From assembly GCA_001782515.1 (NCBI GenBank), contig MFOV01000012.1, forward strand, positions 5,832 to 43,214: DNA of 37,383 nt, given 5' to 3'. The translations under genes were made by a program, and so were the position numbers. Positions 15,307 through 37,383 of this stretch are shown here, one piece after another; the stretch's first letter is position 1, and every line of letters begins with the position of its first letter. The stretch is from Candidatus Levybacteria bacterium RIFCSPLOWO2_01_FULL_39_10. Lineage in GTDB: Bacteria; Patescibacteriota; Microgenomatia; Levybacterales; UBA12049. Below the pieces are notes generated by a model. The model searched no databases, had not been told where the DNA came from, and was given only the letters and a program-made list of their open reading frames with translations.

Positions 15307-15784
15307 GTATTCACAAGTATTTAATTTGCATGCAAATCTTTTAAAAGCTCTGTCTAATCCTAAGAGGCTTGAAGTTCTTCAACTTCTGCGCGACCAAGAA
15401 TTAACAGTTACTCAGATTCAAGAAATGCTATATCTTCCCCAAGGGAATTTGAGTCAACATCTTCATGTTCTTAGAAGTGCAAATGTTGTAAGCACACGGC
15501 GCGAAGGAAAACAGATTTACTATAAAATTGCACATAAAAATTTTATTAAGGCAAGTGACTTAATGAGGGAAATCCTTATTGAGCAACATAAAAACGATAT
15601 TTTAGTCAGCGAGCTTAGTAAAAAAATGACAGACCTTATTCCCTTAACTGCGGATCCAGTTTGTGGAATGAGGATAAGCCCAAAAACCGCATCTTTCATT
15701 TCAAAACAAAACGGCCATTTATATTACTTTTGTGCATCCGGTTGTCTTGAAGCTTTTAATAAATATCCAAAAAGATATGTCTAA
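15305..15784 (+). CDS. ArsR/SmtB transcriptional regulator fused to a C-terminal YHS domain
   Basis: LKALSNPKRLEVL, NLSQHLHVLR, RREGKQIYY; DPVCGM..YYFCASGC. Confidence 0.9.
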   Translation: MYSQVFNLHANLLKALSNPKRLEVLQLLRDQELTVTQIQEMLYLPQGNLSQHLHVLRSANVVSTRREGKQIYYKIAHKNFIKASDLMREILIEQHKNDILVSELSKKMTDLIPLTADPVCGMRISPKTASFISKQNGHLYYFCASGCLEAFNKYPKRYV

Positions 15785-16724: not shown

Positions 16725-16730
16725 AATTTT

Positions 16731-17618
16731 ATGGAACTTCTTGTTAGCGCATCATTTATCGCGGCCTTTATAGCAGGAATTGCAGCCTTATTTGCTCCTT
16801 GCTGTGTAACAATACTTTTACCCACTTATCTTGCTTCTATTTTTAGAGATCGATCAACAGTATTTTTGATGACGTTTATTTATTTTCTAGGACTTTTGGT
16901 TGTATTTATGCCGATTGGTTTAGGTGCAGTTTTCTTAACGCAAATATTCAGCACTTATCACAACACTATTTTCTTCCTAGGTGCTTTATTTTTAATTTTT
17001 TTAGGCACATTTTTACTTCTGGGACAACAGTTTTCTCTCCCGTTTAATATCCACCCCGAACTTAAAAGAGCGAATGCTGGATCTGTCTTTATCCTTGGGA
17101 TTATTTCAGGTATTGCCACAACTTGCTGCGCTCCGGTTCTGGCCGGCGTTTTAACGCTGGCAGTACTACCTGGATCATTTTTATTAGGAGCAGCTTATAC
17201 CCTCGCTTATGTTTTAGGAATGGTTTTGCCCCTTTTTATTCTTGCCACAGTACTTGATAAAACTAAGTTTACAAAAAAATTTTTCGTTTTTCGAAGAAGC
17301 GTGAGTTACTCTCTATTTGGAAAACAAATCAGATTAACTTTTTCTAATCTGTTCTCAGGAGCAATGTTTTTGGTTCTTGGAATAATTATCTTATTTCTAG
17401 CCAGAACAAATAATTTAACATCTCATGCTTCTTATCAAGTAAGTATTAACATTTATTTAACAAAGCTTATTCAGCTTATAGGAGAGTATACAAAACTTAT
17501 ACCCGAACCTATCTGGGCTTTGATTTTTGTTGGTATATTCATTTTCATTACTAAAATTGCACTTGGGCAATTAAAAAATCTAAAGAATGTAAATAAGAAA
17601 GAAGGTGAGAATGAATAA
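16731..17618 (+). CDS. ccdA: CcdA/DsbD-family thiol-disulfide transporter
   Basis: FAPCCVTILLPTY and TCCAPVLAGVL in a multi-TM protein. Confidence 0.85.
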   Translation: MELLVSASFIAAFIAGIAALFAPCCVTILLPTYLASIFRDRSTVFLMTFIYFLGLLVVFMPIGLGAVFLTQIFSTYHNTIFFLGALFLIFLGTFLLLGQQFSLPFNIHPELKRANAGSVFILGIISGIATTCCAPVLAGVLTLAVLPGSFLLGAAYTLAYVLGMVLPLFILATVLDKTKFTKKFFVFRRSVSYSLFGKQIRLTFSNLFSGAMFLVLGIIILFLARTNNLTSHASYQVSINIYLTKLIQLIGEYTKLIPEPIWALIFVGIFIFITKIALGQLKNLKNVNKKEGENE

Positions 17619-18246
17619 ACAAATCCTTGCGATAATTGGAATAGTGGGTGTAATAGTTTTATTGGTGGTTATAGTTGCATCTTTTTCCGACGAAAGTAAA
17701 CCATCGGAAACCCAATCACAGACACCCTCTGATATAAGTGGGCATCATGGATCTGATACGACAAACGATGAGAAATTCCAGTCACTTATTGAGAAGGAAG
17801 CACCTGATTTTATACTTGAAAGTTATACAGGTGAGCAAGTGAGCTTACAAGAACTCCGGGGCAAAAAAATTGTACTCTTCTTCACAGAAGGACTTATGTG
17901 TTATCCGTCATGCTGGAATCAAATGGCCGCATTCGGGGAAGATAGCGCATTTAACAATAGTAACGTAGTAACTTTAAGCATCACCGTTGATAGAAAAGAA
18001 GATTGGAGGCAGGCAATTGAAAAAATGCCTGAGCTATCTCGTGCAATAGTACTTTTTGATACTAACCGTCAAGTATCCAGTGAGTATGGCGTTCTCTCAT
18101 TATCATCGTCCATGCATAAAGGTCAGTTTCCAGGGCATACTTATCTCATATTAGATGAAGAAGGCGTGGTCCGTTTTATTAAAGATGATCCTCAAATGGG
18201 AATAAGAAACGATGAGTTGAAGGCTGAGCTTGGGAAGTTAAAGTAA
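17611..18246 (+). CDS. Membrane-anchored redoxin (AhpC/TSA, thioredoxin fold)
   Basis: APDFIL..VSLQELRGKKIVLFF, CYPSC, TYLILDEEGVVRF. Confidence 0.85.
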   Translation: MNKQILAIIGIVGVIVLLVVIVASFSDESKPSETQSQTPSDISGHHGSDTTNDEKFQSLIEKEAPDFILESYTGEQVSLQELRGKKIVLFFTEGLMCYPSCWNQMAAFGEDSAFNNSNVVTLSITVDRKEDWRQAIEKMPELSRAIVLFDTNRQVSSEYGVLSLSSSMHKGQFPGHTYLILDEEGVVRFIKDDPQMGIRNDELKAELGKLK

Positions 18247-18261
18247 AAATGAGTAATAAAA

Positions 18262-18320
18262 ATCTGTTTGCTCATGCATTTATTATACACAAAGGTCATG
18301 GAGATCACAAAAATAAGAAA
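18262..18320 (+). pseudogene. Possible frameshifted remnant of a DUF2933-like His-rich small membrane protein
   Basis: ICLLMHL followed, after a frameshift, by HKGHGDHK; resembles CPLMHLFMHGGHG. Confidence 0.35.
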
Positions 18321-18338
18321 AAGAGAGGTGAATAGATT

Positions 18339-18503
18339 ATGTTTGGAATAGGAAGTGACGATAAAGTAAGGGATCCTGTCTGCGGGATGAAAGTAGACAA
18401 AAATAAAACTCAGTTTTCTTACGAAAAAGGGAGACATAAGTTTTATTTCTGTTCTCAAAATTGTAAAGACACGTTTATCGAAGACAATAAAAAGGGAGCT
18501 TGA
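18339..18503 (+). CDS. Stand-alone YHS domain protein (54 aa), absent from the ORF track
   Basis: MFGIGSDDKVRDPVCGMKVD...FYFCSQNCKDTF; GAGGTG RBS. Confidence 0.88.
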   Translation: MFGIGSDDKVRDPVCGMKVDKNKTQFSYEKGRHKFYFCSQNCKDTFIEDNKKGA

Positions 18504-18542
18504 GAAGGCAATAAATGTTTTTGGTAATGATTTAAAAAATAT

Positions 18543-18992
18543 ATGGAGAATATAAATATATCAATTGTTAAGGACTCTTCGGTAAAAGGATTATTGGCCA
18601 CTTTTGCTTTGCTGGTTATATATCTTACAATAGTTACATTAGTTTCAGGTTGGGCCTTTGCTCAGATTCAATTTAGGCAGTTTTGGTTTTTTATTATAAC
18701 GCTTGCAATTGGTTTTGGGATTCAGGTGGGTCTTTTTACTTATCTTAAAAATGCAATTAAACAAAATACGTCTCCAAGAGTTTTAGCTATTTCAGGAACA
18801 ACCTCGACTGTCGCTATGGTTTCTTGCTGCGCTCATTATTTGGTAAACATTTTACCAATTCTTGGTGTAGTTGGAATTATTACTGTTATTTCTTCATATC
18901 AAGTACAACTTTTTTGGGTAGGATTGGTTTTTAACATTGCAGGAATAATTTATATAACAAATAAAGTTATCAAGTACACGCGCGGAATATGA
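18543..18992 (+). CDS. Membrane protein with SCCAH motif, putative metal binding or transport
   Basis: About 4 TM helices; AMVSCCAHYL. Confidence 0.75.
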   Translation: MENINISIVKDSSVKGLLATFALLVIYLTIVTLVSGWAFAQIQFRQFWFFIITLAIGFGIQVGLFTYLKNAIKQNTSPRVLAISGTTSTVAMVSCCAHYLVNILPILGVVGIITVISSYQVQLFWVGLVFNIAGIIYITNKVIKYTRGI

Positions 18993-19450
18993 AAATAAAA
19001 TCAAAATTATTATTAGTTTTTTTAATTCCAGTTATTATTGCAGGTGTTTTTATTGTCGCAAGAGCGAATGATAAATCTTCTGAGAGCAATAAAAACCAAG
19101 TTACTACGGAAAAAAACTTATATTCATCGCAAACAAATTCTGAAGGAAACGTAGAAGTTGAGGTTGTTCCGAATGTTTCAGCGGACAAAAAATCATGGAG
19201 TTTTCAAATTACTTTAACGACTCACGAAGGAAGTTTGGACGAAGATTTAACAAAAAAAGCATTTCTTGAAGGCGATGGCGTAGAAAAAATAAAACCCTCA
19301 AAATGGGAAGGATCACCGCCAGGTGGTCACCATCGTGAGGGGAAATTAGTCTTTCCATCATTTTCCCAAACGGCAAAATCAGTCAGACTAATATTAAAAG
19401 ATATTGGACAAATCTCAGAACGAAGTTTTATTTGGAACTTTGACGGGTAA
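18989..19450 (+). CDS. Exported His-motif hypothetical protein
   Basis: N-terminal TM helix; THEGSLD and WEGSPPGGHHREG. Confidence 0.75.
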   Translation: MKIKSKLLLVFLIPVIIAGVFIVARANDKSSESNKNQVTTEKNLYSSQTNSEGNVEVEVVPNVSADKKSWSFQITLTTHEGSLDEDLTKKAFLEGDGVEKIKPSKWEGSPPGGHHREGKLVFPSFSQTAKSVRLILKDIGQISERSFIWNFDG

Positions 19451-19464
19451 AAGGAGGTGATTAA

Positions 19465-19875
19465 ATGAAAAAAGAATATTTGTACGGAATAATTGGATTT
19501 CTAGGAGGTATAGTTCTTACAGTTTTGTTTGCTTCCAATGCAGTGAACAATAACAGCCAACAAATGATGGGAATGATGGGAATGAAAGCTCAAGCACCTT
19601 CCTGTCAAATGGGAGAATCTAGGGAGTTACAAATGAGCATGGAAGATCATATGATGGGTATGACTAGCTCTTTAGAAGGGAAAACCGGAGATGAATTCGA
19701 CAAGACTTTTATTGAGGAGATGATAGTTCATCATCAAGGAGCAATTGATATGGCGCAGCTCGCTCAAGAAAATGCCGGACATGATGAGATTAAATCTATG
19801 GCAGATAATATCATTTCTGCCCAAAGTAGCGAAATAGAAATGATGAGGAATTGGCAACAAGATTGGGATTATTAA
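19465..19875 (+). CDS. DUF305 / CopM-like Met-rich metal-binding protein
   Basis: FDKTFIEEMIVHHQGAIDMA, IISAQSSEIEMM; AGGAGG RBS. Confidence 0.88.
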   Translation: MKKEYLYGIIGFLGGIVLTVLFASNAVNNNSQQMMGMMGMKAQAPSCQMGESRELQMSMEDHMMGMTSSLEGKTGDEFDKTFIEEMIVHHQGAIDMAQLAQENAGHDEIKSMADNIISAQSSEIEMMRNWQQDWDY

Positions 19876-19890
19876 GTTTAATATATGAAA

Positions 19891-19925
19891 GGCCGCCGGC
19901 CCGCGAGGGCCTCTGGCCCGGAGGG
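19891..19925. repeat. GC-rich REP-like double hairpin
   Basis: GGCCC-GCGA-GGGCC 19898-19911 and overlapping CCTC..GAGG stem in AT-rich surroundings. Confidence 0.55.
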
Positions 19926-19936
19926 AGGTGAAAATT

Positions 19937-20203
19937 ATGCTTAAATCTATCGCTTTTGCAAATGCTGCGACAATAGTTATAGCAATATTTTTTATAGCTT
20001 GTGCACTTTTGTCTTATGTTGCGCCGAATTTAGTAGCTGGTATTGGAAATTCATGGGTTCATTCATTGAATCTGGAAGCAATTAAAATAAAAACTCAGCT
20101 TTCGCTAGGAACTCTTGTTTACGGACTGGTGACAATTTCGGTAGTAACATGGGTAACGTCATACGCATTTGTAGAATTATATAACAGACTTGCAAAAAAA
20201 TAA
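19937..20203 (+). CDS. Small two-TM protein, DUF5676-like
   Basis: IACALL, SWVHSLNL, LYNRL; GGAGGTG RBS. Confidence 0.65.
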   Translation: MLKSIAFANAATIVIAIFFIACALLSYVAPNLVAGIGNSWVHSLNLEAIKIKTQLSLGTLVYGLVTISVVTWVTSYAFVELYNRLAKK

Positions 20204-20208
20204 TAACA

Positions 20209-22293
20209 ATGGATATGAATAACAAAATTTATACGTGTCCTATGGATCCGGATATAATTCTGGACAAACCCGGCGATTGTCCAAAATGCGGAATGAAACT
20301 TACCCCGCTTAAAGAAGAGTATGATGGACATGAAAATCATTCCTCAATGGAGCAGGAATTTAAAAAGCGTTTTTTCATAACCCTTCCGTTTGTAATCCTT
20401 GCAATGATTTTGTCCCCAAATATCCAAAATTGGCTTTCATTAGGTATTGATTTTGCCGGCCGAGAAATTGCACTTTTTGTCATTGGCACATTTATATTTT
20501 TCTATGGAGGACTTCCTTTTTTCAGGGGCGCAAAAGGAGAACTCTTTGCAAAGAATGCGGGAATGATGACGCTTGTCGCTTTGGCAATAACTGTTGGATA
20601 TACATTTTCTGTTGCTGCGACATTCCTTTTCCCTGGAGAATCTTTGTACTGGGAAATCTCAACTCTTATTTCAGTATTTTTGCTTGGACATTGGCTTGAG
20701 ATGAGAGCAGTTCGTGGGACAACAGGGGCACTTGCCGAACTTGCAAAACTTACCCCGCCCCAAGCCCATCTTTTAAAAGACGGCAAGGTAATTGATATTA
20801 AAACTGATGAAGTAAAATTAGGTGACAAGCTTCTTGTAAAACCGGGCGAGAAAATTCCAATTGACGGGCAAGTTTTGGATGGAGAAAGTTCTATTAATGA
20901 GTCAATGGTAACAGGCGAATCTCGCCCTGTAGGAAAATTAAAAGGAGACAAAGTTATAGGTGGAACCATTAATCAAGACGGGTCGCTTACGATTCAGGTT
21001 ACAAAGACAGGGAGCGATACGGCAATCTCCCAAATTATGGATTTGATAAGACGCGCACAGGAATCAAAGCCTAAAGTTCAGGAGCTTGCAGACCGCGCCG
21101 CAAACGTTTTGCCATTAACCGCTATAACCATCGGTACGGGAACATTTATATATTGGCTAATTATTAATCCTCAAGGCGCAGTCTTTGCATCAACCCTTGC
21201 CGTTGCGGTTGTGGTTGTTGCCTGTCCGCACGCTTTGGGCCTTGCTATTCCAACGGTTACAACAATTACATCAACTCTTGGTGCCCGCAATGGAATTCTA
21301 ATAAAAGATATGAAGGGGTTAGAGATAGCGCGGAAAATAAATTATGTAGTATTTGATAAAACAGGGACACTTACCCGCGGAGAATTTGGTATAGCAGAGG
21401 TAGTTCGCGTATCAAGTTCAATAGTTGGGGAACAGGAACTATTAAGGCTTGCTGCAGCTGTTGAATCTTCCTCCCAGCATTCAATAGCAATGGGTATAGT
21501 GAATGAAGCAAAAAAGCATAAAATTACGATCCCGACTCCTAAGAATTTTAAATCATATCCAGGCAAAGGTGCGATGGGTAAGGTTGATAATAAAGAGATT
21601 ATTATAGGAAACGGACGCATGATGGAAGAATTAGGTATTAAGAAAGAAGATATTAATAAGCTTGAAACGAAGAAAGTAGGGACATTAGTTTATATTGCTA
21701 TTGATAAAAAATTATCCGGCGCTTTCGTATTATCCGACTTAATAAGAGACGAATCCCGTCCTGCGATTGATAAGCTCCACGAGATGGGCATAAAAATAGC
21801 AATGCTGACAGGGGACAAAAAAGAAGTGGCGGATGAAGTTGGTCGTACCTTAAATCTTGATACGGTTTTTGCAGAAGTTTTGCCGGGTGATAAAGTTGAG
21901 AAAGTCAAAGAACTCCAGAATAAAGGCTATATTGTCGCAATGGTAGGGGACGGCGTGAATGATGCTCCAAGTCTTACCCAAGCACACATGGGAATTGCAA
22001 TAGGGGCAGGAACTGACGTTGCCGTAGAATCAGCAGAAATAGTACTTATGAAAAACAATCCGCAAGATGTTGTTAAGGCAATTTCCCTCTCCCGCAAAAC
22101 CAACTTCAAAATGGTTCAAAACCTTGCGTGGGCAACAGGATATAATGTCTTTGCAATACCAATAGCAGCGGGTGTACTTTTTCCTACATTTGGAATACTG
22201 CTTCGCCCCGAATGGGCAGCAGTTTTAATGTCTGCTTCATCCATAATCGTTGTTTTTAATGCTCTTATTTTAAGACGAGCAAAGCTAAGTTAG
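20209..22293 (+). CDS. copB: Copper-translocating P1B-type ATPase (CPH subtype, CopB-like)
   Basis: TGES, CPHALGLAIP, DKTGTLT, GDGVNDAP, YN and MSASS; N-terminal YTCPM..CPKCGM domain. Confidence 0.9.
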   Translation: MDMNNKIYTCPMDPDIILDKPGDCPKCGMKLTPLKEEYDGHENHSSMEQEFKKRFFITLPFVILAMILSPNIQNWLSLGIDFAGREIALFVIGTFIFFYGGLPFFRGAKGELFAKNAGMMTLVALAITVGYTFSVAATFLFPGESLYWEISTLISVFLLGHWLEMRAVRGTTGALAELAKLTPPQAHLLKDGKVIDIKTDEVKLGDKLLVKPGEKIPIDGQVLDGESSINESMVTGESRPVGKLKGDKVIGGTINQDGSLTIQVTKTGSDTAISQIMDLIRRAQESKPKVQELADRAANVLPLTAITIGTGTFIYWLIINPQGAVFASTLAVAVVVVACPHALGLAIPTVTTITSTLGARNGILIKDMKGLEIARKINYVVFDKTGTLTRGEFGIAEVVRVSSSIVGEQELLRLAAAVESSSQHSIAMGIVNEAKKHKITIPTPKNFKSYPGKGAMGKVDNKEIIIGNGRMMEELGIKKEDINKLETKKVGTLVYIAIDKKLSGAFVLSDLIRDESRPAIDKLHEMGIKIAMLTGDKKEVADEVGRTLNLDTVFAEVLPGDKVEKVKELQNKGYIVAMVGDGVNDAPSLTQAHMGIAIGAGTDVAVESAEIVLMKNNPQDVVKAISLSRKTNFKMVQNLAWATGYNVFAIPIAAGVLFPTFGILLRPEWAAVLMSASSIIVVFNALILRRAKLS

Positions 22294-22807: not shown

Positions 22808-22937
22808 TTAATCAAATCACCCCTCACTAGAAAGAATAAGATTCTTGAGACATTATAAAGTTTAATGACCCGCTTGGAGTTTCTATTTAATTAATAATAT
22901 CAGGTATTAGATTTTGTGTTAAAATTTGTTGACAATT

Positions 22938-23879
22938 ATGGGAAACGCAAAACAAAAACTGACTATTATTTTATTATTTTTGCTTCTTCTTATAGTAATT
23001 CCTGTTTTTCTTTATTTCATATCAAAATCTCAAAATATTACCGATAAGAGAATTACCTCTCCTATAGTTAATTTTGTGGAAACAATATCCCGAAGCAAAC
23101 TTAAACATATAGTTGAGAGTAATTTCTCAAAGGAGAAAGGAGAATGGGCTGTTGTTGTCAAAAACTTAAAAACAGGGGAAAGCTTCAAGTATAACGGAAA
23201 TCAAAAGTTTGATTCTGCAAGTCTTTATAAACTTTGGGTAATGGCTGTTGCTAAAGGGCAAATTGAAAACGGCAATTTAAACGAAGGCACTTTATTAAGT
23301 GCTGAGAAAGAAAAACTTGATGAAACTTTATCAACAGTTACACCAACACCAACCCCTCTAGATTTTATTCCAACTCCCACACCAGAGGAATTTAAGAAAG
23401 AAATTATTTCGATGACAGTTTCAGATGCACTCGAGAAAATGATAACAATCTCTGACAATTACTCGGCACTTCTTTTGTCAGCAAGAGTCGGACCATCAAA
23501 TATTACAAGTTTTCTAAAAGATTACGGATTCGATAATTCAAATTACGCTTCTCCACCCGAGACCTCAGCTTCTGACATTGCAGAATTTTTTGAGCTTCTT
23601 TATAAAGGCGAAATAGTTAGTGAAAAAACCTCAATTGAAATGATTGAAATTTTAAAACAACAAACATTTGATGACAGAATTCCAAAATATTTGCCCAAAA
23701 ATACAGAGGTTGCTCACAAAACTGGAGAACTTTTTGGTGCAAAACACGACGCTGGCATTGTTTTTAGTAAGGGTGGGGATTATATAATTGTAGTTTTATC
23801 AAAAACAGAAAATGAAAAAGAGGCAGCTGAAAAGATTGCAAGGTTCTCAGAAGAAATTTACAAATATTTTAACAACTAA
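22938..23879 (+). CDS. Serine hydrolase, class A beta-lactamase-like fold
   Basis: SxxK (SLYK), SDN, HKTG, HDAGIV; N-terminal TM helix. Confidence 0.88.
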   Translation: MGNAKQKLTIILLFLLLLIVIPVFLYFISKSQNITDKRITSPIVNFVETISRSKLKHIVESNFSKEKGEWAVVVKNLKTGESFKYNGNQKFDSASLYKLWVMAVAKGQIENGNLNEGTLLSAEKEKLDETLSTVTPTPTPLDFIPTPTPEEFKKEIISMTVSDALEKMITISDNYSALLLSARVGPSNITSFLKDYGFDNSNYASPPETSASDIAEFFELLYKGEIVSEKTSIEMIEILKQQTFDDRIPKYLPKNTEVAHKTGELFGAKHDAGIVFSKGGDYIIVVLSKTENEKEAAEKIARFSEEIYKYFNN

Positions 23880-26833: not shown

Positions 26834-27127
26834 ATGGCGAGAAAGGACCTGCCTGCCGGCAGGCAGGAGTGGTCGAATGAGGTTACTAAACATAGTATTG
26901 CGCTGGATCTTGAAGAAGGGGTTTTTACATGGGATGATCCGAAAAAAATTGCCTCAAGTCTTAAGCGTTCGGCTGATGTTAGTACAAGAAGAAAAGCCTC
27001 ACCTTTTCAATCCGCAATGAGCATGCTTAATTTTTATATTAACCGCGCTGGTAAAAATCTAAACCCTAGGAAAAAGAAAATACTTGAGGAAGCAAAAATA
27101 GAGCTTCGAAAGATATTCACCGAATAA
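26834..27127 (+). CDS. DUF3175-family protein with an N-terminal palindrome-derived insertion
   Basis: WS.EVT.HS.ALDLE.GVFT, SAMSMLNFYINRAGKNL. Confidence 0.85.
   Translation: MARKDLPAGRQEWSNEVTKHSIALDLEEGVFTWDDPKKIASSLKRSADVSTRRKASPFQSAMSMLNFYINRAGKNLNPRKKKILEEAKIELRKIFTE
26848..26867. repeat. Perfect 20-bp palindrome CCTGCCTGCCGGCAGGCAGG inside the CDS
   Basis: Read directly; encodes LPAGRQ. Confidence 0.9.
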
Positions 27128-27165
27128 GGGCAATTATAGCACTTCGCTTTTGCTCAGCGTAAACA
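27128..27165 (-). repeat. Boundary motif GCTATAATTGCCC preceded by CTGAGCAAAAGCGAAG
   Basis: Minus strand CTGAGCAAAAGCGAAGTGCTATAATTGCCC closely matches CTGAGCAAAGTCGAAGGGCTATAATTGCCC in the 76-bp repeats. Confidence 0.8.
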
Positions 27166-27169
27166 GAAG

Positions 27170-27793
27170 TTATTTACTGAATATTGTTATTCCGCCGTTA
27201 GAGCCGGGGAAGTTGAAAGCTTTTTCAAAATCTTTTAGAGTAATTTTTCTTCCTTTGATTGGTGGTAGTCCAGGGTCGTGAAGAATTATATTTCTTCCGT
27301 CAAAATCATAAAGCAAAATGTAATGTAAAGAAAAGCCTGGCTTGTTGTTTAAAATTCTGGAATTTACTTCTACGCTAACCAAAAAGCCGTCTTTTAAGTT
27401 TTCTGTTATTTCATTAACAGATCCTTTTCTTATCTCGTGCTTTACGTTTTTGAGAAATTCCGGAATAAAAGGGATTACTGATTTGATATTGCTTTTGTCC
27501 AGATAATAATCCGCTGTGTCTTTGCCGACCACTTTTCTAAGGTAATCCGGGCCGTCTTTGTAAAGTTTTTTGTAATCGACGGGTTCTACGCTCGTGATTT
27601 TTAAACCTTTTTTTGCAAAGTATGTAAGTCCGGGGAATGTCCAAGTTCCTTTTCTGGAGACAGATTTCATTATTCTATCTATTTCGCGCCAATTTAAATC
27701 TTCACCAAAATAATATTTGCTAAGCATTCGAAAGACTGCGGGACAACAGTGCATGTTATCGGAAGAATTAGCTACAAACGGGATCTTTTTCAT
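27170..27793 (-). CDS. Peptidase C39-like (papain-fold) protein
   Basis: N-terminal HCCPA, HYILLYDFD, ILHDPG. Confidence 0.7.
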   Translation of the reverse strand: MKKIPFVANSSDNMHCCPAVFRMLSKYYFGEDLNWREIDRIMKSVSRKGTWTFPGLTYFAKKGLKITSVEPVDYKKLYKDGPDYLRKVVGKDTADYYLDKSNIKSVIPFIPEFLKNVKHEIRKGSVNEITENLKDGFLVSVEVNSRILNNKPGFSLHYILLYDFDGRNIILHDPGLPPIKGRKITLKDFEKAFNFPGSNGGITIFSK

Positions 27794-27807
27794 GGGGCAA
27801 TTATAGC
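27794..27807 (-). repeat. Boundary/promoter motif GCTATAATTGCCCC directly before ATG
   Basis: Plus strand GGGGCAATTATAGC. Confidence 0.9.
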
Positions 27808-27846
27808 AGGTTTGTTATATAAGCTATGTTATAATCTAAGTCATTA

Positions 27847-28392: not shown

Positions 28393-28530
28393 TTAAAAAG
28401 ATAATTGTTGTTTATAGAAATCAATTGAATTTGTTACAGCGCTATTCCAACCTGATGGCAGCAAATTATGGTCAGCTCCGGGATATTTAAAATAAGTAAC
28501 ATCTACATCATTTTCCTTTAAAGCTTCTCC
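28393..28530 (-). pseudogene. C-terminal fragment of an alpha/beta hydrolase (S9 peptidase-like)
   Basis: Translated by hand: GEALKENDVDVTYFKYPGADHNLLPSGWNSAVTNSIDFYKQQLSF*; carries the catalytic-His motif; 5' side replaced by repeats. Confidence 0.7.
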
Positions 28531-28665
28531 TTTCCCACTTTACTTTCCCACTTGGAATGTGGGAAGCAAGAAATGTGGGAAGCAAGAACCTCGGTTTCAC
28601 TCAGTGCAAGCGCGCAAGGCTACGAAGGATTCATCTTGAGGGTTTCATCCTGAAGGGCAAGGAAG
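28530..28665. repeat. Composite repeat cluster
   Basis: CTTTCCCACTT x2, AATGTGGGAAGCAAGA x2 (TTCCCAC and GTGGGAA are complementary), then a degenerate minus-strand copy of the 76-bp unit. Confidence 0.8.
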
Positions 28666-28679
28666 AAAGAGTATATTGT

Positions 28680-28988
28680 TTAGGATAAAATTCCTGAGAA
28701 GAATATAAGAAGAATAACAACTGTTATTGCGGCAAAAATTCCAAGAGTTTGAAGGAATATATTAACGGCTTCTTTTTTCTTCCCGTCAAAATAAAGCTGT
28801 AGCGGCTGGAAAAGAAAAATATATCCCATAACTGCTGCAGAGAGTGAAAAAAGAGAGAGTGCAGCAATTGGCGCAAGTACAGAATTATCATTAGTTCCTG
28901 AAAACTGCGTACCATAATACATTACACTTGCCACAACTACTATATATAGTACTCCGGCCCCAGCATTGATGATTGGATTCTTAGTCAC
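28680..28988 (-). CDS. Small three-TM hypothetical protein
   Basis: 102-aa hydrophobic ORF, LSAAVMGYIF..P..LYFDGKKKEA. Confidence 0.75.
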   Translation of the reverse strand: MTKNPIINAGAGVLYIVVVASVMYYGTQFSGTNDNSVLAPIAALSLFSLSAAVMGYIFLFQPLQLYFDGKKKEAVNIFLQTLGIFAAITVVILLIFFSGILS

Positions 28989-30688: not shown

Positions 30689-31174
30689 CTAATTAACTAG
30701 GATATATTTTTCATCCTCGCTGGGTGATTCCCAGTATTTCAAATATTTATCAAACATTTCTCCACTTATTTCAAAGGAATCTATAGGAGGATTTTTACTT
30801 CGTGAAACAACCCTTTCTCTCATTTTCTCTACAGAGCATTCAACATAATATAAAATTGGCTTTGCTCCTGCATTTAATATTTTCTTCTTTATATCGTCTC
30901 TTTGTGATTTAACCCAGAAACCTTCATCTATTATCACATCTTTCCCAGATTCCAAAATTTTGAAAGCAATATTTGTAGCCAATTTCGTTATTTTTCCGTC
31001 ATATACTGCAAAATTCTTATCTGAAGTAATTTTATTTCCATAAATTTTTATAATCCATTCGTCTTTAGTTATGCGAATTGCTCCCGTTTCCTTTTCTAGT
31101 TTTCTAGCAAAAGTAGTTTTTCCCGAACCGATAAATCCGCAGATAACATAAGCAATAGGTTGTTTCTTATTCAT
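30689..31174 (-). CDS. P-loop kinase (AAA_33-like)
   Basis: CGFIGSGKTTFA, DVIIDEGFW. Confidence 0.85.
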   Translation of the reverse strand: MNKKQPIAYVICGFIGSGKTTFARKLEKETGAIRITKDEWIIKIYGNKITSDKNFAVYDGKITKLATNIAFKILESGKDVIIDEGFWVKSQRDDIKKKILNAGAKPILYYVECSVEKMRERVVSRSKNPPIDSFEISGEMFDKYLKYWESPSEDEKYILVN

Positions 31175-31233
31175 TAAGACATTATAACAAAGTGGAATCT
31201 ATTTATATTATGATGGAGCTCTAAAATTACTTG

Positions 31234-31305
31234 CTCCGCAGCTAGGACTCGAACCTAGAACCTTATCCTTAACAGGGATCTGCTCTACCATTGAGCTACT
31301 GCGGA
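31234..31305 (-). tRNA. tRNA-Asn (GTT), CCA not encoded
   Basis: TCCGCAG acceptor stem, GCTC/GAGC D-arm, loop CTGTTAA, CTAGG-TTCGAGT-CCTAG T-arm. Confidence 0.96.
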
Positions 31306-31362
31306 ATGTTTGATAATTATATAAAATTAGCCTCAAGATGTAAACCTGCTATAATTGATCCA

Positions 31363-31521
31363 ATGAAAATAAATGCAGAGTGGCATAAGAAAAATAAAAT
31401 GCCAAAAAATCCAACCGAGGAGCAAAGAATAAAATGGCATATAGCGCATGCCAAAAATTGCGCTTGCTGGCCTATACCCAAAAAACTCCAAGAGATAATT
31501 GACAAAAAATATCCGTCCTAA
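31363..31521 (+). CDS. Small His/Cys-motif protein (52 aa)
   Basis: MKINAEWHKKNKMPKNPTEEQRIKWHIAHAKNCACWPIP; TGCTATAAT 7 nt before ATG. Confidence 0.7.
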   Translation: MKINAEWHKKNKMPKNPTEEQRIKWHIAHAKNCACWPIPKKLQEIIDKKYPS

Positions 31522-31606
31522 TATAATTTGCTAAATTATGAAAACCCGTCACGTTAGAGAAGTGTGATTGTTTAAGTTTTTATAGAGACAAACAGAAAAC
31601 AGTATT

Positions 31607-32032
31607 ATGAAAAAATCCCAAAACAACAAAAAATCCTCTAACGTGATGAATCCCGTAGTTCACTTTGAGATGCCGGCAGTTAATAAAAAAAGAGTTGCGA
31701 AGTTTTACGAAACTGCCTTTGGCTGGGAGACGCAGCAGTTAGGAGCAGAGATGGGTCATTATCTTCTGGCAACAACAACACCTCTTGACAAGAATAGAAT
31801 GCATCTTAATAAAGGCGCCATAAACGGAGGTTTTTTCCAAAAACCAAAAGAAGGCAAGGTGCCTCATCTGGTAATCTCAGTTGATAATCTTAAAAAACAC
31901 ATGGAAATTGTTAAAAAAGCAGGTGGAAAAGTTCTGGGAAAGCCAATGGATATTTCAGGAATTGGAGAATTTGTAATGTTTAAAGACACAGAAGGAAACC
32001 AAGTCGGAATGCTTGAGCCCTCTCAAATGTAG
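31607..32032 (+). CDS. VOC/glyoxalase family protein
   Basis: NPVVHFEMP, FYETAFGW, INGG, FKDTEGNQVG. Confidence 0.9.
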   Translation: MKKSQNNKKSSNVMNPVVHFEMPAVNKKRVAKFYETAFGWETQQLGAEMGHYLLATTTPLDKNRMHLNKGAINGGFFQKPKEGKVPHLVISVDNLKKHMEIVKKAGGKVLGKPMDISGIGEFVMFKDTEGNQVGMLEPSQM

Positions 32033-32059
32033 ATTTATCTCATTTGCTATAATTGCCCC

Positions 32060-32548
32060 ATGAAGGTTAACGAAAATATTATTTGGGACTTACTTAGACT
32101 TTCGCTTTCATTTATTTTTCTCTGGGTATTTTTTGATAAATTATTTGGACTTGGATTTGCAACCGGAGCAAGTAAATCATGGCTTGCAGGGGTCTCTCCT
32201 ACAACCGGATTTTTAGCAAATGCTCCCGATGGACCACTTGCTCCGCTTTTTAACAGTCTCTCAGGAAATATTGTGATAGATATTTTATTTATGGGAGGAC
32301 TTTTTTTAGTTGGATCTGCACTACTTCTTGGAATCGGGATGAAGATTGCTGGTTACTCAGGATCTTTAATGATGTTTTTAATTTATCTTTCTCTTTTTCC
32401 TCCGGAGAATAATCTCTTGATTGACGAACACATTGTTTATATTATTATTCTGATTGGCTTGGTCATAAGAGGTGAAAAACAAAAATTTGGGTTCGGCAAA
32501 AAATGGTCAGAAGTTAAATTAGTTAAAAAGTATTCAATCCTTCAATAG
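32060..32548 (+). CDS. DoxX-family membrane protein
   Basis: LRLSLSFIFLWVFFDKLFGLG, SPTTGFL, LIDEHIVY. Confidence 0.8.
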   Translation: MKVNENIIWDLLRLSLSFIFLWVFFDKLFGLGFATGASKSWLAGVSPTTGFLANAPDGPLAPLFNSLSGNIVIDILFMGGLFLVGSALLLGIGMKIAGYSGSLMMFLIYLSLFPPENNLLIDEHIVYIIILIGLVIRGEKQKFGFGKKWSEVKLVKKYSILQ

Positions 32549-32577
32549 ATAAATTCCCCTTTTGCTATAATTGCCCC

Positions 32578-33039
32578 ATGACTTCCTCTGAATTTTTCAA
32601 AATAATTGAATATATTACCCAAAACTGCAGGGATTTAAAAAATAAATATATAAGCGAAGATTTAAAAATTGATTACGTTTGCATATTTTCGAAAAGCCAA
32701 AAGGAATTTGATGAACTTTTAAAATTTGCGTCAAGCATAGGAGAATTGGCAGAACAAACAAAAACAGGGCCTGTTTTTAAATTAAATAATTCTCCAGATA
32801 CAATTATTGGCAAACCAAAAATGCTAAAAATAAGAATTCCCGATAAAACAAGACTGGAAAGAGGAGACGTGGATTTTAATACAGACTATGAAAATTTCAA
32901 AAAAAAGTATCTTGATAACAAAAGATTTACTTTAATAAAAAGGGACAACTTTGAAATGCTTGAACTGCGAGATAATTCCTTTGATGTTCTGGTTTACTTC
33001 TCAAGCATTCCTCTTAGCGAACAGTTAGGAGTAAATTAA
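32578..33039 (+). CDS. Hypothetical protein
   Basis: 153-aa ORF starting directly after the motif. Confidence 0.75.
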   Translation: MTSSEFFKIIEYITQNCRDLKNKYISEDLKIDYVCIFSKSQKEFDELLKFASSIGELAEQTKTGPVFKLNNSPDTIIGKPKMLKIRIPDKTRLERGDVDFNTDYENFKKKYLDNKRFTLIKRDNFEMLELRDNSFDVLVYFSSIPLSEQLGVN

Positions 33040-33063
33040 AAGCTAAGCTGCTATAATTGCCCC

Positions 33064-33390
33064 ATGATTATAATCCTCAAAAAAAGAGCTACGAAAGATG
33101 ATATTAAAAAAATGTCAGAAGATTTTGACGGATATATTAAGCTTGTTGTCGACATTGAAAAAGAAATATTGGCCGGAGGCGGAGAGAGGCATTTTGAAGC
33201 AGAACAAAAATTAATTAATGATGGTTCACACCAAACAAGTCTTTGGGGCGGCGGATTAGATTGGGATACTCGCGAGATAGATTATAATTCAATTTTAAAT
33301 CTTCGGCCGGGGGTAAATCCAAGCCGTGATATTCTCTCCGAAATTATAAGAAAAAAGTTTGATAAAATAGTTGAAGATATTCTTCTATGA
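33064..33390 (+). CDS. DUF5674-like protein
   Basis: IKLVVDIEKEILAGGGERH..E..L...GS.Q..LWGG, SILNLRP. Confidence 0.75.
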   Translation: MIIILKKRATKDDIKKMSEDFDGYIKLVVDIEKEILAGGGERHFEAEQKLINDGSHQTSLWGGGLDWDTREIDYNSILNLRPGVNPSRDILSEIIRKKFDKIVEDILL

Positions 33391-33698
33391 CAAGTACAAA
33401 ATTAAAAATTCTAGACATAGCGATGAACCTTAATAGAGTTGGTAACTTTGCCGCAGATGGGTATGATATAAAACAAAAAAGAATAAAAATATTTCTTAAT
33501 CAAACCTCAGAATACATAGACTCTCTCTCTATCAAAGATTTACCAGACTCATTTAAAAGAACATACTTAAATTTTCTAAATCAATATAAATATCTTAAAA
33601 AGGAAGGATTATCAGGACCTAAAAATGAGCTTGAATGGGCTGAAAAAATGATGACATGGGGAAATATTTTGACTCACCGTGCAAACCTCATAAAATAA
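33387..33698 (+). CDS. Hypothetical helical protein coupled (ATGA overlap) to the DUF5674 gene
   Basis: 103-aa ORF. Confidence 0.7.
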   Translation: MTSTKLKILDIAMNLNRVGNFAADGYDIKQKRIKIFLNQTSEYIDSLSIKDLPDSFKRTYLNFLNQYKYLKKEGLSGPKNELEWAEKMMTWGNILTHRANLIK

Positions 33699-33701
33699 CT
33701 T

Positions 33702-33777
33702 CCTTGCCCTATCGTAGCCTTAGGGCGAAGTGGGGTGCTTGCCCTGAGCAAAGTCGAAGGGCTATAATTGCCCCAGT
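33702..33777 (+). repeat. 76-bp direct repeat, copy 1
   Basis: CCTTGCCCTATCGTAGCCTTAGGGCGAAGTGGGGTGCTTGCCCTGAGCAAAGTCGAAGGGCTATAATTGCCCCAGT. Confidence 0.95.
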
Positions 33778-33992
33778 TATTTTAGCCTGAGGAATTCTTC
33801 TTCACTAGACTCCGCTTGTTTGATTATACTTCTTACCAAACCTTTTTTCAGTTCTCTGGCATGAATGGGAATAGGAATAATCCTCTTTAACTTGGGATTA
33901 TACATAATAAGATGGCTGCCGGTTTGTCTTTTTTGAATGTACCCCAGTTTTTGAAGAATTTTAACTATCTCTCTTGCTTTAAAACTTGCCAT
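33777..33992 (-). CDS. hicA: HicA-family toxin
   Basis: LQKLGY..RQTGSHLIM, IPIHARELKKG..RSIIKQA. Confidence 0.92.
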   Translation of the reverse strand: MASFKAREIVKILQKLGYIQKRQTGSHLIMYNPKLKRIIPIPIHARELKKGLVRSIIKQAESSEEEFLRLK

Positions 33993-34262
33993 TTATAGAG
34001 ATACTGCTGGATTTTGTACGGAAATTTGCGTGATGACAACATTTGGCCCTTCTTGTGGAATTTCTTGTTTTTCTTCTTTAAGAACCTCCAAATACCCTTC
34101 CATGGCATCTTTTATCATAGACACCGCTTCCTCAAAAGTTTCCCCCTGGCTAACGCAGCCAGGAAGTGCCGGAACACTTACCACATATCCGCCTTCTTCA
34201 GCCGGTTCAAAGATAGCAGTATATTTTAAGATTTTTTTTGAAAGAGATTTTACTTTTACCAT
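33993..34262 (-). CDS. hicB: HicB-family antitoxin (short, no DNA-binding domain)
   Basis: EEGGYVVSVPALPGCVSQGETFEEA. Confidence 0.92.
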   Translation of the reverse strand: MVKVKSLSKKILKYTAIFEPAEEGGYVVSVPALPGCVSQGETFEEAVSMIKDAMEGYLEVLKEEKQEIPQEGPNVVITQISVQNPAVSL

Positions 34263-34291
34263 GAATTAATTATAGCATACTCAAACTCTTC

Positions 34292-34367
34292 CCTTGCCCT
34301 ATCGTAGCCTTAGGGCGAAGTGGGGTGCTTGCCCTGAGCAAAGTCGAAGGGCTATAATTGCCCCAGT
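34292..34367 (+). repeat. 76-bp direct repeat, copy 2
   Basis: Identical to 33702-33777. Confidence 0.95.
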
Positions 34368-34403
34368 GCGTGACAAAATGTATGCTAATATGGTAATATA
34401 TTT

Positions 34404-34688
34404 ATGAATACATCCTTTGAATGGGATGAGAGTAAAAATACCGAGAATTTAAGAAAGCATGGAGTAGGTTTTGAGACTGCCCAATTCGCATTTATTGATT
34501 TAAGACGCGTAATTGCTCGGGATCTAACTCACAGTAAGAGAGAAAAGAGATATTTTTGTTTCGGAAAAGTTAAAGGAGGTGTACTGACTGTTCGCTTTAC
34601 CTATCGGAGCAATAAAATTCGCATAATTGGCGCTGGATATTGGAGAAAGGGCAAAAGCATATATGAAAAACAAAATAAAATACAGTAA
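34404..34688 (+). CDS. brnT: BrnT-family toxin
   Basis: FEWDESKNTENLRKHGVGFE, EKRY, LTVRFTYR..IRII. Confidence 0.9.
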   Translation: MNTSFEWDESKNTENLRKHGVGFETAQFAFIDLRRVIARDLTHSKREKRYFCFGKVKGGVLTVRFTYRSNKIRIIGAGYWRKGKSIYEKQNKIQ

Positions 34689-34893
34689 TGAACCAATCGA
34701 GGCTCGTGTAGTGAGTGATTTCTTACCTAAGCCTGAGGATTTGGTTTTAAAAGAAAAAAAGATAAGGGTAACCTTAACTCTTACCGAGAAAAGTTTGGAC
34801 TTTTTTAAAATAGCTGGTAAAAAACATGGGGCTCCTTATCAGGCAATGATAAGACGCCTTCTTGATTTTTACGTTGCTAATCAAAAAGCCTAA
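34663..34893 (+). CDS. BrnA/CopG-like antitoxin
   Basis: DFLPKPEDL, RVTLTL..LDFFK, PYQAMIRRLLD; overlaps brnT. Confidence 0.85.
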   Translation: MKNKIKYSNEPIEARVVSDFLPKPEDLVLKEKKIRVTLTLTEKSLDFFKIAGKKHGAPYQAMIRRLLDFYVANQKA

Positions 34894-35009
34894 ATAAGTT
34901 TTGGAAGAATTTCCTCTTCTGCTATAATTGTCCCCATAGCCGATTTCCAAGAAGTCACTATAGGATATTGTGTTTTGAGGGGAGTAGTGCTATTATCGCT
35001 CAGCAAAAA

Positions 35010-37383
35010 ATGCGAAAGGGGTTTTGGAGAAAGTTCTCTGCATTCCTTGCCCTAATTTCGATACTTGCCCAATCGTTAGTCCTTTTATTGGCTTCGGCAC
35101 CAAGAGTATATGCACAAGAAGAGGTAGAACAAGTTGCACTTGAAGAATCTGTAACAGAAACTCCTATTCCTACTACCTCTGATGAAATAACCGCATCTCC
35201 CTCACCAGAAGATCAACCTCAAATAACTCCCGAAGAGGCAATCTTTGAGATAGACATAACCCTCACACCACCAGAAAACGTTACGCCTTCAAATGCTCAG
35301 ACACAAAATGAGTTGGAGCAACTAGAAAATCAGGAAAACAATAATAGTCCAAATGAAAAACCACAAGATGAAGAGCCACAAGAGTATAATGAAGAACTCC
35401 ACGTTATAGTTATCAATAATGTTTCTGCTGAATCTTTAGATTTAGAAACAACTGTAAAAGATTCTTCGGCAACACTTACTACCGATAAGGCCGACTATTC
35501 TCCAACAGACACGGTTATTATTAGCGGGAGCGATTTTAAGCCGGAGCAAACATATAAGCTAATAATTACATCAGAAAATGAGCCTCCTGCCCACTTTGAA
35601 ACAGAAATTAAATCTGATGAAAACGGATCTTTCATATACGCTTATCAGCTAGACGGGACGTACAGACCAAACTATAAAGTTGAGGCAAAAGACGAAGATG
35701 GAAATATTATCGCAACTATAACATTTACAGACGACATCCAAGCCCCTGTTCCCTTTTCAGACTCCTTTGGGACTGTAAATTCGTCTTCGGTAACTAATTG
35801 GGATGAACAAGATCCTGCGGAAATAACAAGTGGTTCAGGTGAGGATTCTTCAAGACCGGGGTCTCCTACTACAAAATTTGCAAAAATTGGACAATCAAGC
35901 GGCGGAACAGATGGATGGATTAGGCGAACGATCAACGCAACAGGATTTCAATCTCTTCAACTTAAATATTACTGGAGAGGAGATAGTGACGCAGAAAGTA
36001 ATGACTTAGGAATTGTAGAATATTGTTTGGGAGCGACTTGCACTTCTTTTAACCAGCTCGTGACTCATGCTTTGAACAATACTTCCTGGAGCGGCCAGCA
36101 AACCATAAATTTGCCCTCATCGCTTAATAATTCTGTCTTTAGAATAAGATTTAGAAATAGTTCCAGCAATACTGATGAATATTTTAGAGTAGATGATGTT
36201 GAAGTAGCGGGCTCTGGGATAGTTCCGCCGGATACCATTCCTCCAACTGACCCAGCTGATGTCCATAGTACTGACCACACAATCAATGTACCATCAAGTG
36301 ACAATACTATTGCTATTGCTTGGACCTTAGCCGGTTCTGCTCCCGGGGCTACTGATTCAGAATCCGGGATTGACGGATATTCATATTCATTTAGTGGCGG
36401 GGCTGCTGATTTACCAGATACAGTAAAAGACTCGGAAGAATCATCAATAGGGACAACGAGTAGCTCTCTTTCAGACGGCAATTGGTGGTTTCATTTAAGA
36501 ACCAGAGATAATGCAGGCAACTGGACATCAACGGTGCATATCGGCCCATTTATAGTAGATACCGGTGCTCCGGTTTTATCAGAGGCAACAGCTGTCCAAA
36601 CCCCAACAAATGATACGACCCCAGCTTATGTATTCAATTCTGATGAAGAAGGGACGGTTTCATATGGAGGCAGTTGTTCCAGCCCAGATTCGTCTGCAGT
36701 TTCTGGCAACAATACTATTACTTTTAACTCTCTTTTGGATGGAACCTATTCTGATTGTACAATTATAGTTACGGATTCTGCGGAGAATAGTAGTACGCCT
36801 TTGGGTGTATCTCCATTTACAGTTGATACGCTGGCTCCTACATCTTCATTTACTTCTCCAGAAAACAACAGTTTCTGGAACAGCTCAATAGAAATCTCCG
36901 GAAGCTCAATTGACCCATCAGGTAATTTTGTAGATTATGTTACGCTATATTACTCCCTCTCAGGAGAAAATGACTGGAATGAGATTACCCAAGTTACTAA
37001 TAATGCAGATACCCCTTTTAATTGGAGCTACAGCTGGGAACCCGAAAATGAGGTGACTTATGACATAAAGGCTGAGGCAACAGATGTTGCTGGAAACACG
37101 GAGACAAGCCCCATAGTCACAAATATAACTTATGATATTACATCACCCACAGATCCCGATGTTTTCTCAAGTAGCCATGCAGTTGGTACTTGGTCAAATG
37201 ATCCAACCGTTGATATTGAGTGGGGTGGGGCTGCGGACTTTTTGTCTGGAGTAGCCGGTTATTCATTTCATTTTGATTCCTCGCCAAGCACGCTTCCTGA
37301 TGAAGTATCAGAAGGGTTAGTAACATCAACAACAAGTGAGGGGCAAGGCGATGGAGACTCACACTACTTTCATTTAAGAACAC
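35010..37383 (+). CDS. Large secreted acidic Ser/Thr-rich surface protein with Ig-like/FN3-like repeats; 5' part (at least 791 codons), absent from the ORF track
   Basis: Translated by hand: signal-like MRKGFWRKFSAFLALISILAQ..VYA, E/P/T linker, TDKADYSP, repeated DT.PP and D.AGN motifs; frame open to the window end. Confidence 0.88.
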   Translation, partial: MRKGFWRKFSAFLALISILAQSLVLLLASAPRVYAQEEVEQVALEESVTETPIPTTSDEITASPSPEDQPQITPEEAIFEIDITLTPPENVTPSNAQTQNELEQLENQENNNSPNEKPQDEEPQEYNEELHVIVINNVSAESLDLETTVKDSSATLTTDKADYSPTDTVIISGSDFKPEQTYKLIITSENEPPAHFETEIKSDENGSFIYAYQLDGTYRPNYKVEAKDEDGNIIATITFTDDIQAPVPFSDSFGTVNSSSVTNWDEQDPAEITSGSGEDSSRPGSPTTKFAKIGQSSGGTDGWIRRTINATGFQSLQLKYYWRGDSDAESNDLGIVEYCLGATCTSFNQLVTHALNNTSWSGQQTINLPSSLNNSVFRIRFRNSSSNTDEYFRVDDVEVAGSGIVPPDTIPPTDPADVHSTDHTINVPSSDNTIAIAWTLAGSAPGATDSESGIDGYSYSFSGGAADLPDTVKDSEESSIGTTSSSLSDGNWWFHLRTRDNAGNWTSTVHIGPFIVDTGAPVLSEATAVQTPTNDTTPAYVFNSDEEGTVSYGGSCSSPDSSAVSGNNTITFNSLLDGTYSDCTIIVTDSAENSSTPLGVSPFTVDTLAPTSSFTSPENNSFWNSSIEISGSSIDPSGNFVDYVTLYYSLSGENDWNEITQVTNNADTPFNWSYSWEPENEVTYDIKAEATDVAGNTETSPIVTNITYDITSPTDPDVFSSSHAVGTWSNDPTVDIEWGGAADFLSGVAGYSFHFDSSPSTLPDEVSEGLVTSTTSEGQGDGDSHYFHLRT

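Follow-up and report, generated by a model that had tools for sequence, protein, structure and literature searches.

A perfect 76-nt repeat around the hicBA module of a Levybacteria contig belongs to a dispersed family of putative leaderless-promoter elements

A stretch of 37,383 nt from contig MFOV01000012.1 of Candidatus Levybacteria bacterium RIFCSPLOWO2_01_FULL_39_10 (hereafter the window, meaning this stretch at its full length) contains a short toxin-antitoxin locus, hicBA, that is enclosed by two identical 76-nt direct repeats. A first-pass annotation of the window had taken this pair as the best evidence for an active, integron-like array of gene cassettes. The pair is real and recent, but to treat it as proof of array activity overstates what can be read from it. 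As judged from its sequence, the 76-mer belongs to a dispersed family of GC-rich (guanine- and cytosine-rich) intergenic promoter elements of Microgenomates-type Patescibacteria, approximately 75–120 nt long, which bridge the gap between a gene's stop codon and the start codon of the gene that follows. Our preferred explanation, to which we assign a probability of about 0.5, is that hicBA was inserted by recombination at such an element and duplicated it in the process, the ancestral layout having been the stop codon of the open reading frame (ORF) ORF103, the element, and then the toxin-antitoxin pair brnTA. What we infer from this arrangement is the activity of the promoter, how and in which direction the event took place, and any excision.

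A repeat search of the 33400–34700 region recovered both copies (copies 1 and 2, at 33702–33777 and 34292–34367) with 100% identity and a start-to-start distance of 590 bp. These 76 nt are the maximal perfect repeat, as the flanking bases differ between the copies (left T/C, right T/G), and an identity of this length cannot have arisen by chance. The GC content of the 76-mer is 57%, against 36% for the window. Copy 1 makes up the entire gap between the convergent ORF103 and hicA, and its last base is shared with the hicA stop codon (33777, the first plus-strand base of that stop). Everything between the repeats is accounted for by hicB, hicA and a promoter of their own, with no spare sequence; thus the description of the pair as two 76-mers, 590 bp apart, that enclose a minimal, compact and self-contained module was borne out by the repeat search, by Pfam and by the –10 pattern described below. 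The tract of identity coincides with the part of the element that is conserved in the family, from CCTTGCCC to 3 nt beyond the discriminator, and its 3' end falls within a codon, which is GTG at copy 2 and GTT at copy 1.

The 76-mer ends, as had been noticed before, in a recurrent motif, GCTATAATTGCCCC, followed by AGT. With up to 2 mismatches this motif has 9 matches in the window (0.17 expected; 0 of 100 shuffles reach 9), seven on the plus and two on the minus strand. The hicBA pair does lie on the minus strand, yet with two of nine motif matches on that same strand there is no uniformly oriented array to which it could be called reversed. An ATG follows the motif immediately at four of the nine sites (32060, 32578 and 33064 on the plus strand, 27793 on the minus strand), and at a fifth site one base intervenes. 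The stricter pattern of an extended –10 box, TGNTATAAT, followed by 6 nt and ATG was found 8 times between 26299 and 34277, on both strands, where 0.07 matches were expected and 0 of 100 shuffles reached 8. Seven of these eight sites provide the first start codon of ORFs of at least 89 aa, encoding a NUDIX protein, a C39-like peptidase, an AAA_33 kinase, three unknowns or DUF5674, and HicB; looser versions of the pattern precede additional genes of the window. Neighbouring genes thereby each have their own –10 box right before the ATG, and the intergenic gaps of approximately 25–30 nt hold the promoter only. In leaderless genes, those of Actinobacteria among others, a –10 hexamer precedes the start codon by 6–7 nt, and because the box sits at this distance the motif is better read as a predicted promoter of leaderless genes (extended –10 box plus 6-nt discriminator) than as the recombination site that the cassette interpretation had made of it. 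The supposed array is accordingly a run of accessory genes that are predicted to be leaderless, each with its own putative promoter, and it seems that accessory genes in this genome are expressed without a leader as a rule.

Within the 76-mer, TTGCCC, an 18-nt spacer and TATAAT score 10/12 at both copies in a consensus promoter scan, and the –35 and –10 columns are invariant or nearly so in seven of nine aligned copies of the element. The 3' half of the element would thus constitute a complete sigma-70-type promoter, made of TTGCCC, an 18-nt hairpin-forming spacer, TATAAT and a discriminator of 6–8 nt, with transcription starting on or beside the start codon to give a leaderless mRNA. Leaderless promoters of Actinobacteria, e.g., Mycobacterium tuberculosis, likewise keep a constant short spacing between –10 box and start codon, so that transcription begins at that codon. 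The sites described here differ from the actinobacterial ones in their extended TG and in a 6-nt discriminator that is identical at five sites of the window, and, in the 76-mer family, in the conservation of the whole promoter, spacer included, across contigs of different candidate phyla. The 18-nt promoter sites of the accessory genes (Table 1) have only their last 15 nt in common with the 76-mer.

Relatives of the element were searched with a degenerate 23-nt pattern derived from the 3' half of the 76-mer, which was scanned against the genome contigs of 185,579 species genomes and yielded four loci: L001 (Candidatus Gottesmanbacteria), L002 (Maribacter), L003 (Candidatus Levyibacteriota) and L004 (Candidatus Vogelbacteria). 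A profile built from a first alignment (A1) was then searched against the window and these four loci. The Maribacter locus had only the 23-nt pattern in common with the others (profile E-value 1e-4 over 30 nt); it was treated as a chance match and left out of the alignment A2 and of all family counts. The family so defined consists of nine copies on four contigs of four genomes, i.e., four in the window, three in L001 (a, b and c) and one each in L003 and L004. The first-pass annotation had set a dispersed repeat as a finding that would speak against its own interpretation, and half of this was found: the 76-mer does belong to a dispersed family.

All four window copies are situated between 27.1 and 34.4 kb of the 37 kb, and the profile search found none in the first 27 kb. 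Seven of the nine copies come after the stop codon of a co-oriented gene, which in four of them (window copies 1 and 3, L001 a, L003) falls within the A-rich motif at the left end of the element. This left end, AAATAACTT, occurs exactly twice in the window, both occurrences marking the left end of a copy: at copy 1 its TAA (33696–33698) is the stop of ORF103, and at copy 3 it is the stop of the C39-like gene at 27170..27793. Copy 3, which is 27/30 identical to the 76-mer at 27128–27157 (minus strand), overlaps with its last base the stop codon of a convergent DUF3175 gene, and the decayed copy 4 begins approximately 12 nt past the stop of the ORF at 28680..28988. On the right side, the start codon of a long ORF is found 6–8 nt past the –10 box in four of the nine copies (L001 a and b, L003, L004), and the ORFs that start there have Pfam domains as different as GNAT and dioxygenase (L001), HIT (L003) and RmuC (L004). 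In L001 the element occupies three successive intergenic gaps, in the order NYN gene, element, GNAT gene, element, dioxygenase gene, element. The last of these, copy c, aims an intact –10 box at the 3' end of a convergent gene, the only ATG that it serves being that of a 7-codon ORF 7 nt past the box; copies 1 and 3 of the window likewise have an intact –10 box that points into the 3' end of a neighbour. The element is also modular: in L003 a further unit, similar to the second hairpin, is inserted between the halves (approximately 2040–2075, minus strand), and a similar insertion of approximately 26 nt in the first hairpin is common to window copy 4 and L001 copy c.

Copies 1 and 2 agree at all 76 positions, while over the same columns all 35 other pairs within the family are 50–84% identical; the other window copies reach 60–62%, and the L001 copies, all within 1.4 kb of each other, reach 69%, 76% and 84%. 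Since neighbouring copies have diverged, function alone does not keep copies identical, and the perfect pair therefore records a recent event, be it a duplication or a conversion. On recency, the claim made earlier from the perfect identity was right. What the event consisted of is less certain. Both copies could be older and independent family members, one behind ORF103 and one before brnTA, that were made identical by gene conversion or laid down recently from one master, in which case hicBA was not delivered by the event. The dispersed nature of the family and the three successive gaps of L001 fit this account, as neighbouring copies would need no special event, and copy 1 is in ordinary company between convergent genes, together with copy 3, L001 c and perhaps copy 4, the –10 box of which has decayed (three or four of nine copies). 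The left flank of copy 2 can moreover be read as a diverged family left end. The moderate identity of the neighbouring L001 copies (69–84%) goes against this account, as does the absence of inverted ends or target duplications that would suggest transposition. Copy 2 would, in addition, be the sole clear copy, one in nine, that does not come after a co-oriented gene, being preceded by the divergent hicB. We consider independent copies unlikely, although they deserve to be kept in mind.

The enclosed module, again from its sequence, is a genuine member of the HicAB type II toxin-antitoxin family in a short-antitoxin form, with one predicted toxin and one predicted antitoxin. Structural matches of HicA include PDB 1whz from Thermus (E-value 1.9e-8) and Yersinia HicA3 4p78 (E-value 3.8e-4), and its Gly-Ser-His stretch (tgsh in the query) lines up with the GSH of Yersinia HicA3; the conserved His of this stretch has a catalytic role. 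The TAA of hicB directly abuts the ATG of hicA on the same strand. The locus thus resembles the HicAB systems used for comparison (Escherichia coli 6hpb, Yersinia HicA3 4p78, Thermus 1whz) in its HicA and HicB domains and in its adjacent, co-directional small genes, and differs from them in that the antitoxin gene comes first and in that HicB, with 89 aa, has the N-terminal fold only (Pfam profile positions 1–58 of 123; residues 9–72 of a 148-aa HicB chain). The C-terminal DNA-binding domain found in solved HicB proteins of 138–148 aa is missing; as this domain is not universal in the family, membership in HicAB stands.

A search with HicB returned 2318 matches at E-values ≤ 1e-3, of which the best 120 were approximately 69–100% identical, and among the matches listed nearly all were 86–90 aa long; the short HicB is the common form among these 2318 relatives. 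The gene is common and highly conserved in Patescibacteria, and the few matches with a named source include Levybacteria and Daviesbacteria. HicB is encoded at 96% identity on a Levyibacteriota contig of 171,713 bp and at 79% in Daviesbacteria, and among the matches listed an identical HicB is found on at least 12 contigs, the largest of 63,673 bp. This abundance and conservation fits a mobile module. Many of the closest relatives listed are located on contigs shorter than 1 kb (658, 992, 530, 838, 609 and 588 bp), which could reflect assembly breaks at flanking repeats or merely low coverage.

The insertion that we prefer is favoured by the junctions: copy 1 has the canonical left and copy 2 the canonical right junction of the family, and deletion of hicBA together with one copy would restore a layout like that of L001. 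Starting from an ancestral locus with the ORF103 stop, the element and brnTA, hicBA with its own leaderless promoter would have entered through recombination at the element, most simply by a single crossover with a circular intermediate made of hicBA and one element copy. One copy would then have come to lie on either side of hicBA: copy 1 would have retained the native left junction and would now be antisense toward hicA, and copy 2 would have retained the native right junction and would still drive brnTA. Copy 1, if active, would make an RNA antisense to both hicA and hicB, and we speculate that such transcription could matter because this HicB is without a DNA-binding domain. Direct repeats of 76 nt could lose the intervening module through homologous recombination, and loss of a toxin-antitoxin pair would presumably be selected against.

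Several observations weigh against this insertion, or against the family and promoter on which it depends. To the left of the perfect repeat, copy 2 resembles the family left end at approximately 8 of 12 positions and so could be an old, complete element, and gene conversion between two older copies would give the same picture. The strict pattern matched only three Patescibacteria genomes among the 185,579 species genomes, and the family is known from nine copies on four contigs only. None of the four loci had two matches to the 23-nt pattern, so that the genome of the window is absent from this collection and the four window copies are a lower bound for its copy number. In the promoter scan the overall enrichment was mild, with 25 sites found against 15.2 ± 3.8. 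The folding energies of the hairpins are no better than those of shuffles (z –1.6 to +0.6), and the alignment fold of 12 pairs contains 0 compensatory changes. A further warning sign is the length of the repeat, as 76 equals k – 1 for k = 77, a common k-mer size of de Bruijn assemblers.

An assembly artefact or a population mixture would fit this last coincidence: the succession of element, hicBA and element would be a loop in the assembly graph, with hicBA present in some strains only or at another element-flanked locus. The many close HicB relatives on short contigs, as if assemblies broke at flanking repeats, are compatible with it. Even a loop, however, requires both junctions (element to hicA and hicB to element) to be present in reads; an identical HicB is found on contigs of up to 63,673 bp; and 76 nt is shorter than ordinary reads, with nothing in the sequence that looks chimeric. 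We hold such an artefact to be quite improbable.

The integron-like cassette that had been proposed, in which the 76-mer is the site of a site-specific recombinase and hicBA moves with one site as a 590-bp circle, finds some footing in the element itself. Its length is in the range of attC sites, it comes after gene stop codons as they do, and a complementary AAC...GTT pair flanks copy 1, where 33691–33701 can pair with 33775–33783 to form an inverted repeat of 9–10 nt. Toxin-antitoxin cassettes with their own promoter are described from chromosomal integrons in the portion of PMC13108822 available to us, and the hicBA locus is similar to such cassettes of sedentary chromosomal integrons in being an own-promoter pair between similar repeats amid small accessory genes. 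The comparison fails in most other respects. No integrase (such as IntI), recombinase or transposase domain was detected by Pfam in the 44 ORFs scanned, although the window covers 37 kb and a distant integrase is still possible. The flanks of copy 1, AAATAAC/GTTATTT, can pair with each other but do not match the attC core sites, RYYYAAC/GTTRRRY, at their Y and R positions, and copy 2 and the L001, L003 and L004 copies have no flanking AAC...GTT pair. The minimum-energy fold of the element consists of two separate hairpins (z –1.6) instead of the one long imperfect hairpin expected of attC architecture, the motif is present on both strands, and neighbouring "cassettes" are separated by their promoters only, so that the common motif is a putative promoter and the genes are not promoterless. 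The resemblance is superficial and an integron mechanism very improbable.

Still less can be said for a composite transposon-like unit, in which two miniature non-autonomous elements would flank hicBA and be mobilised by a transposase acting in trans. Two identical small repeats around a short cargo do recall the arrangement of IMU elements, two identical copies of which can flank cargo according to the part of PMC3184786 available to us. Against it, the longest terminal inverted match within the element is 5 nt, no direct repeat of 2–12 nt borders either copy, the insert or the unit as a whole, the two copies stand in direct orientation, and transposase domains are likewise lacking among the ORFs scanned; we give this option next to no weight.

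The closest functional analogues may be promoter-bearing intergenic repeats of other bacteria. The same portion of PMC3184786 describes the REP2 repeats of Neisseria and the IR repeats of Borrelia, which carry a promoter and a ribosome-binding site as well as an ATG, and the Correia elements of Neisseria, miniature inverted-repeat transposable elements (MITEs) with functional outward promoters. Like REP2 and IR, the 76-nt element is a short intergenic repeat with two stem-loops that places a predicted promoter and translation start in front of several unrelated genes. It differs from them in having no ribosome-binding site, in a start codon 6–8 nt past the –10 box (leaderless), in abutting the upstream stop codon and in occurring in Patescibacteria; the comparison is one of descriptions, with no sequence relation expected. 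Correia elements are similarly small, dispersed and intergenic and place promoters beside genes, often at gene ends, but the 76-nt element has neither the terminal inverted repeats nor the target duplications by which they are bounded. In the literature on leaderless promoters or intergenic repeats of Patescibacteria, the candidate phyla radiation and Microgenomates we found no description of the element or of its promoter layout, and the portions of PMC12641178 and PMC12641261 available to us do not mention them.

Other searches centred on the element were negative or were set aside. Rfam at gathering scores returned only a tRNA-Asn for the whole window, and the 33600–34450 region had 0 matches at E ≤ 1; blastn in distant mode with 33680–34400 gave no match in plasmid or phage collections. 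The 44-aa ORF that runs over copy 1 had no match among longer proteins (two candidates, none scored) or proteins of similar length, in a collection that does not contain the window's own ORF, so that this result is uninformative on empty sites. RNA or DNA structure as the cause of conservation was dropped, given the shuffle-level energies and the lack of any compensatory pair. A two-way terminator, in which an A-tract and a T-tract would flank the hairpins around copy 1, is speculation only, since a consensus scan of 31000–35500 found 3 sites where 3.2 were expected and 0 at the element.

The coordinates of the features are collected in Table 1. Upstream of copy 1, DUF5674 and ORF103 overlap by ATGA, and a single leaderless promoter motif abuts the first ATG. 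Downstream of copy 2, brnTA is a second toxin-antitoxin pair beside hicBA; the TGA of a GTG-initiated mini-ORF overlaps the brnT ATG (ATGA), and by this overlap the mini-ORF may couple translation from the predicted leaderless start to brnT. Weaker –10-like boxes lie closer to brnT than the copy 2 promoter, and brnA overlaps the end of brnT by 26–62 nt, depending on the start chosen.

Table 1 Coordinates of the repeat copies, of hicBA and of neighbouring features (window positions unless a locus is named)
Feature	Position	Strand	Details
Copy 1	33702..33777	+	–35-like TTGCCC 33739–33744, 18-nt GC-rich spacer, TATAAT 33763–33768; then GTT, no start codon
Copy 2	34292..34367	+	–35-like box 34329–34334, TATAAT 34353–34358; GTG at 34366, 7 nt past –10; faces brnTA
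Copy 3, truncated	27121..27180	–	AAATAACTT left end and 3' half with intact TATAAT; profile E-value 1.6e-10
Copy 4, decayed	28575..28668	–	no –10 box; weak match, E-value 0.0011
L001 copy a	1271–1361 of 3188 bp	+	E-value 1.6e-19
L001 copy b	1884–1980 of 3188 bp	+	E-value 2.5e-26
L001 copy c	2616–2692 of 3188 bp	+	E-value 7.7e-18
A-rich left end of element, AAATAACTT	33691..33701	+	conserved in L001 copy b as well as in window copies 1 and 3
Segment between repeats	33778..34291	–	514 bp; complete hicBA (promoter, hicB, hicA); GC 37%
hicA, toxin gene	33777..33992	–	71 aa; PF07927 (HicA_toxin) E-value 2.9e-20, 72.6 bits (cut-off 27)
hicB, antitoxin gene	33993..34262	–	89 aa; PF15919 (HicB_lk_antitox) E-value 3.1e-13; PDB HicB 6u0i E-value 1.2e-7
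Putative hicB promoter and start	34260..34277	–	extended –10 box TGCTATAAT, 6 nt, ATG; leaderless layout
Identical 18-nt sites (extended –10, 6 nt, ATG)	32045–32062, 32563–32580, 33049–33066	+	fourth site at 27791–27808 (–)
Two-gene unit	33064..33698	+	DUF5674 33064..33390 (108 aa); ORF103 33387..33698 (103 aa, no known function)
GTG mini-ORF	34366..34407	+	13 codons; starts 7 nt past copy 2 –10; tail of ORF 34294..34407
brnT	34404..34688	+	PF04365 E-value 6.4e-22
brnA	TTG 34627 or ATG 34663 to 34893	+	PF14384 E-value 5.3e-5, below Pfam cut-off

The Pfam scan also places the locus in a chromosomal context, with purA, purB, dnaG, rpoD and a copper/redox cluster. The tRNA-Asn (31233–31305, minus strand) is located beside the AAA_33/zeta-toxin-like kinase gene (30689–31305 region, minus strand, putative leaderless promoter), and both toxin-antitoxin pairs, like each of the four element copies, lie around this tRNA, within 27.1–34.9 kb. 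Downstream of copy 4, the minus strand of 28395–28590 holds two CTTGCTTCCCACATT units in direct and two GTGGGAAAG units in inverted orientation, followed by an apparent C-terminal gene remnant that ends in ...QQLSF and a stop. Farther away, an ORF at 22926–23879 has a class A beta-lactamase-type fold (PF13354, E-value 4.3e-47), and a metal/redox cluster at 15275–22293 encodes a regulator of the ArsR type that has a YHS domain, DsbD-like, AhpC/TSA, DUF305 and DUF5676 proteins, and a P-type ATPase with a heavy-metal-binding domain.

A bolder proposal, which we think improbable, is that Microgenomates-type Patescibacteria have a recombinase-free cassette system. The stop-to-start element, combining an end signal with a leaderless promoter, would serve as portable homology, so that modules of one or two genes, e.g., hicBA, could loop out and re-insert ready for expression; the 76-nt pair would then be a fresh integration, and copy 1 an antisense promoter that tunes a HicB without a DNA-binding domain.

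The finding is ordinary in kind and moderately interesting in that it exposes an undescribed promoter element. It replaces the active integron-like array with a simpler and more testable reading, a local rearrangement at a promoter element, in which one recurring GC-rich element would package a leaderless promoter into the gap that separates a gene's stop from the start of its successor. If confirmed as a strong portable promoter, the element would help the annotation of gene starts in Patescibacteria genomes and would offer a part for gene expression in organisms that are not yet engineerable. The perfect pair around hicBA is also a good site at which to seek ongoing recombination in natural populations of this uncultivated lineage.

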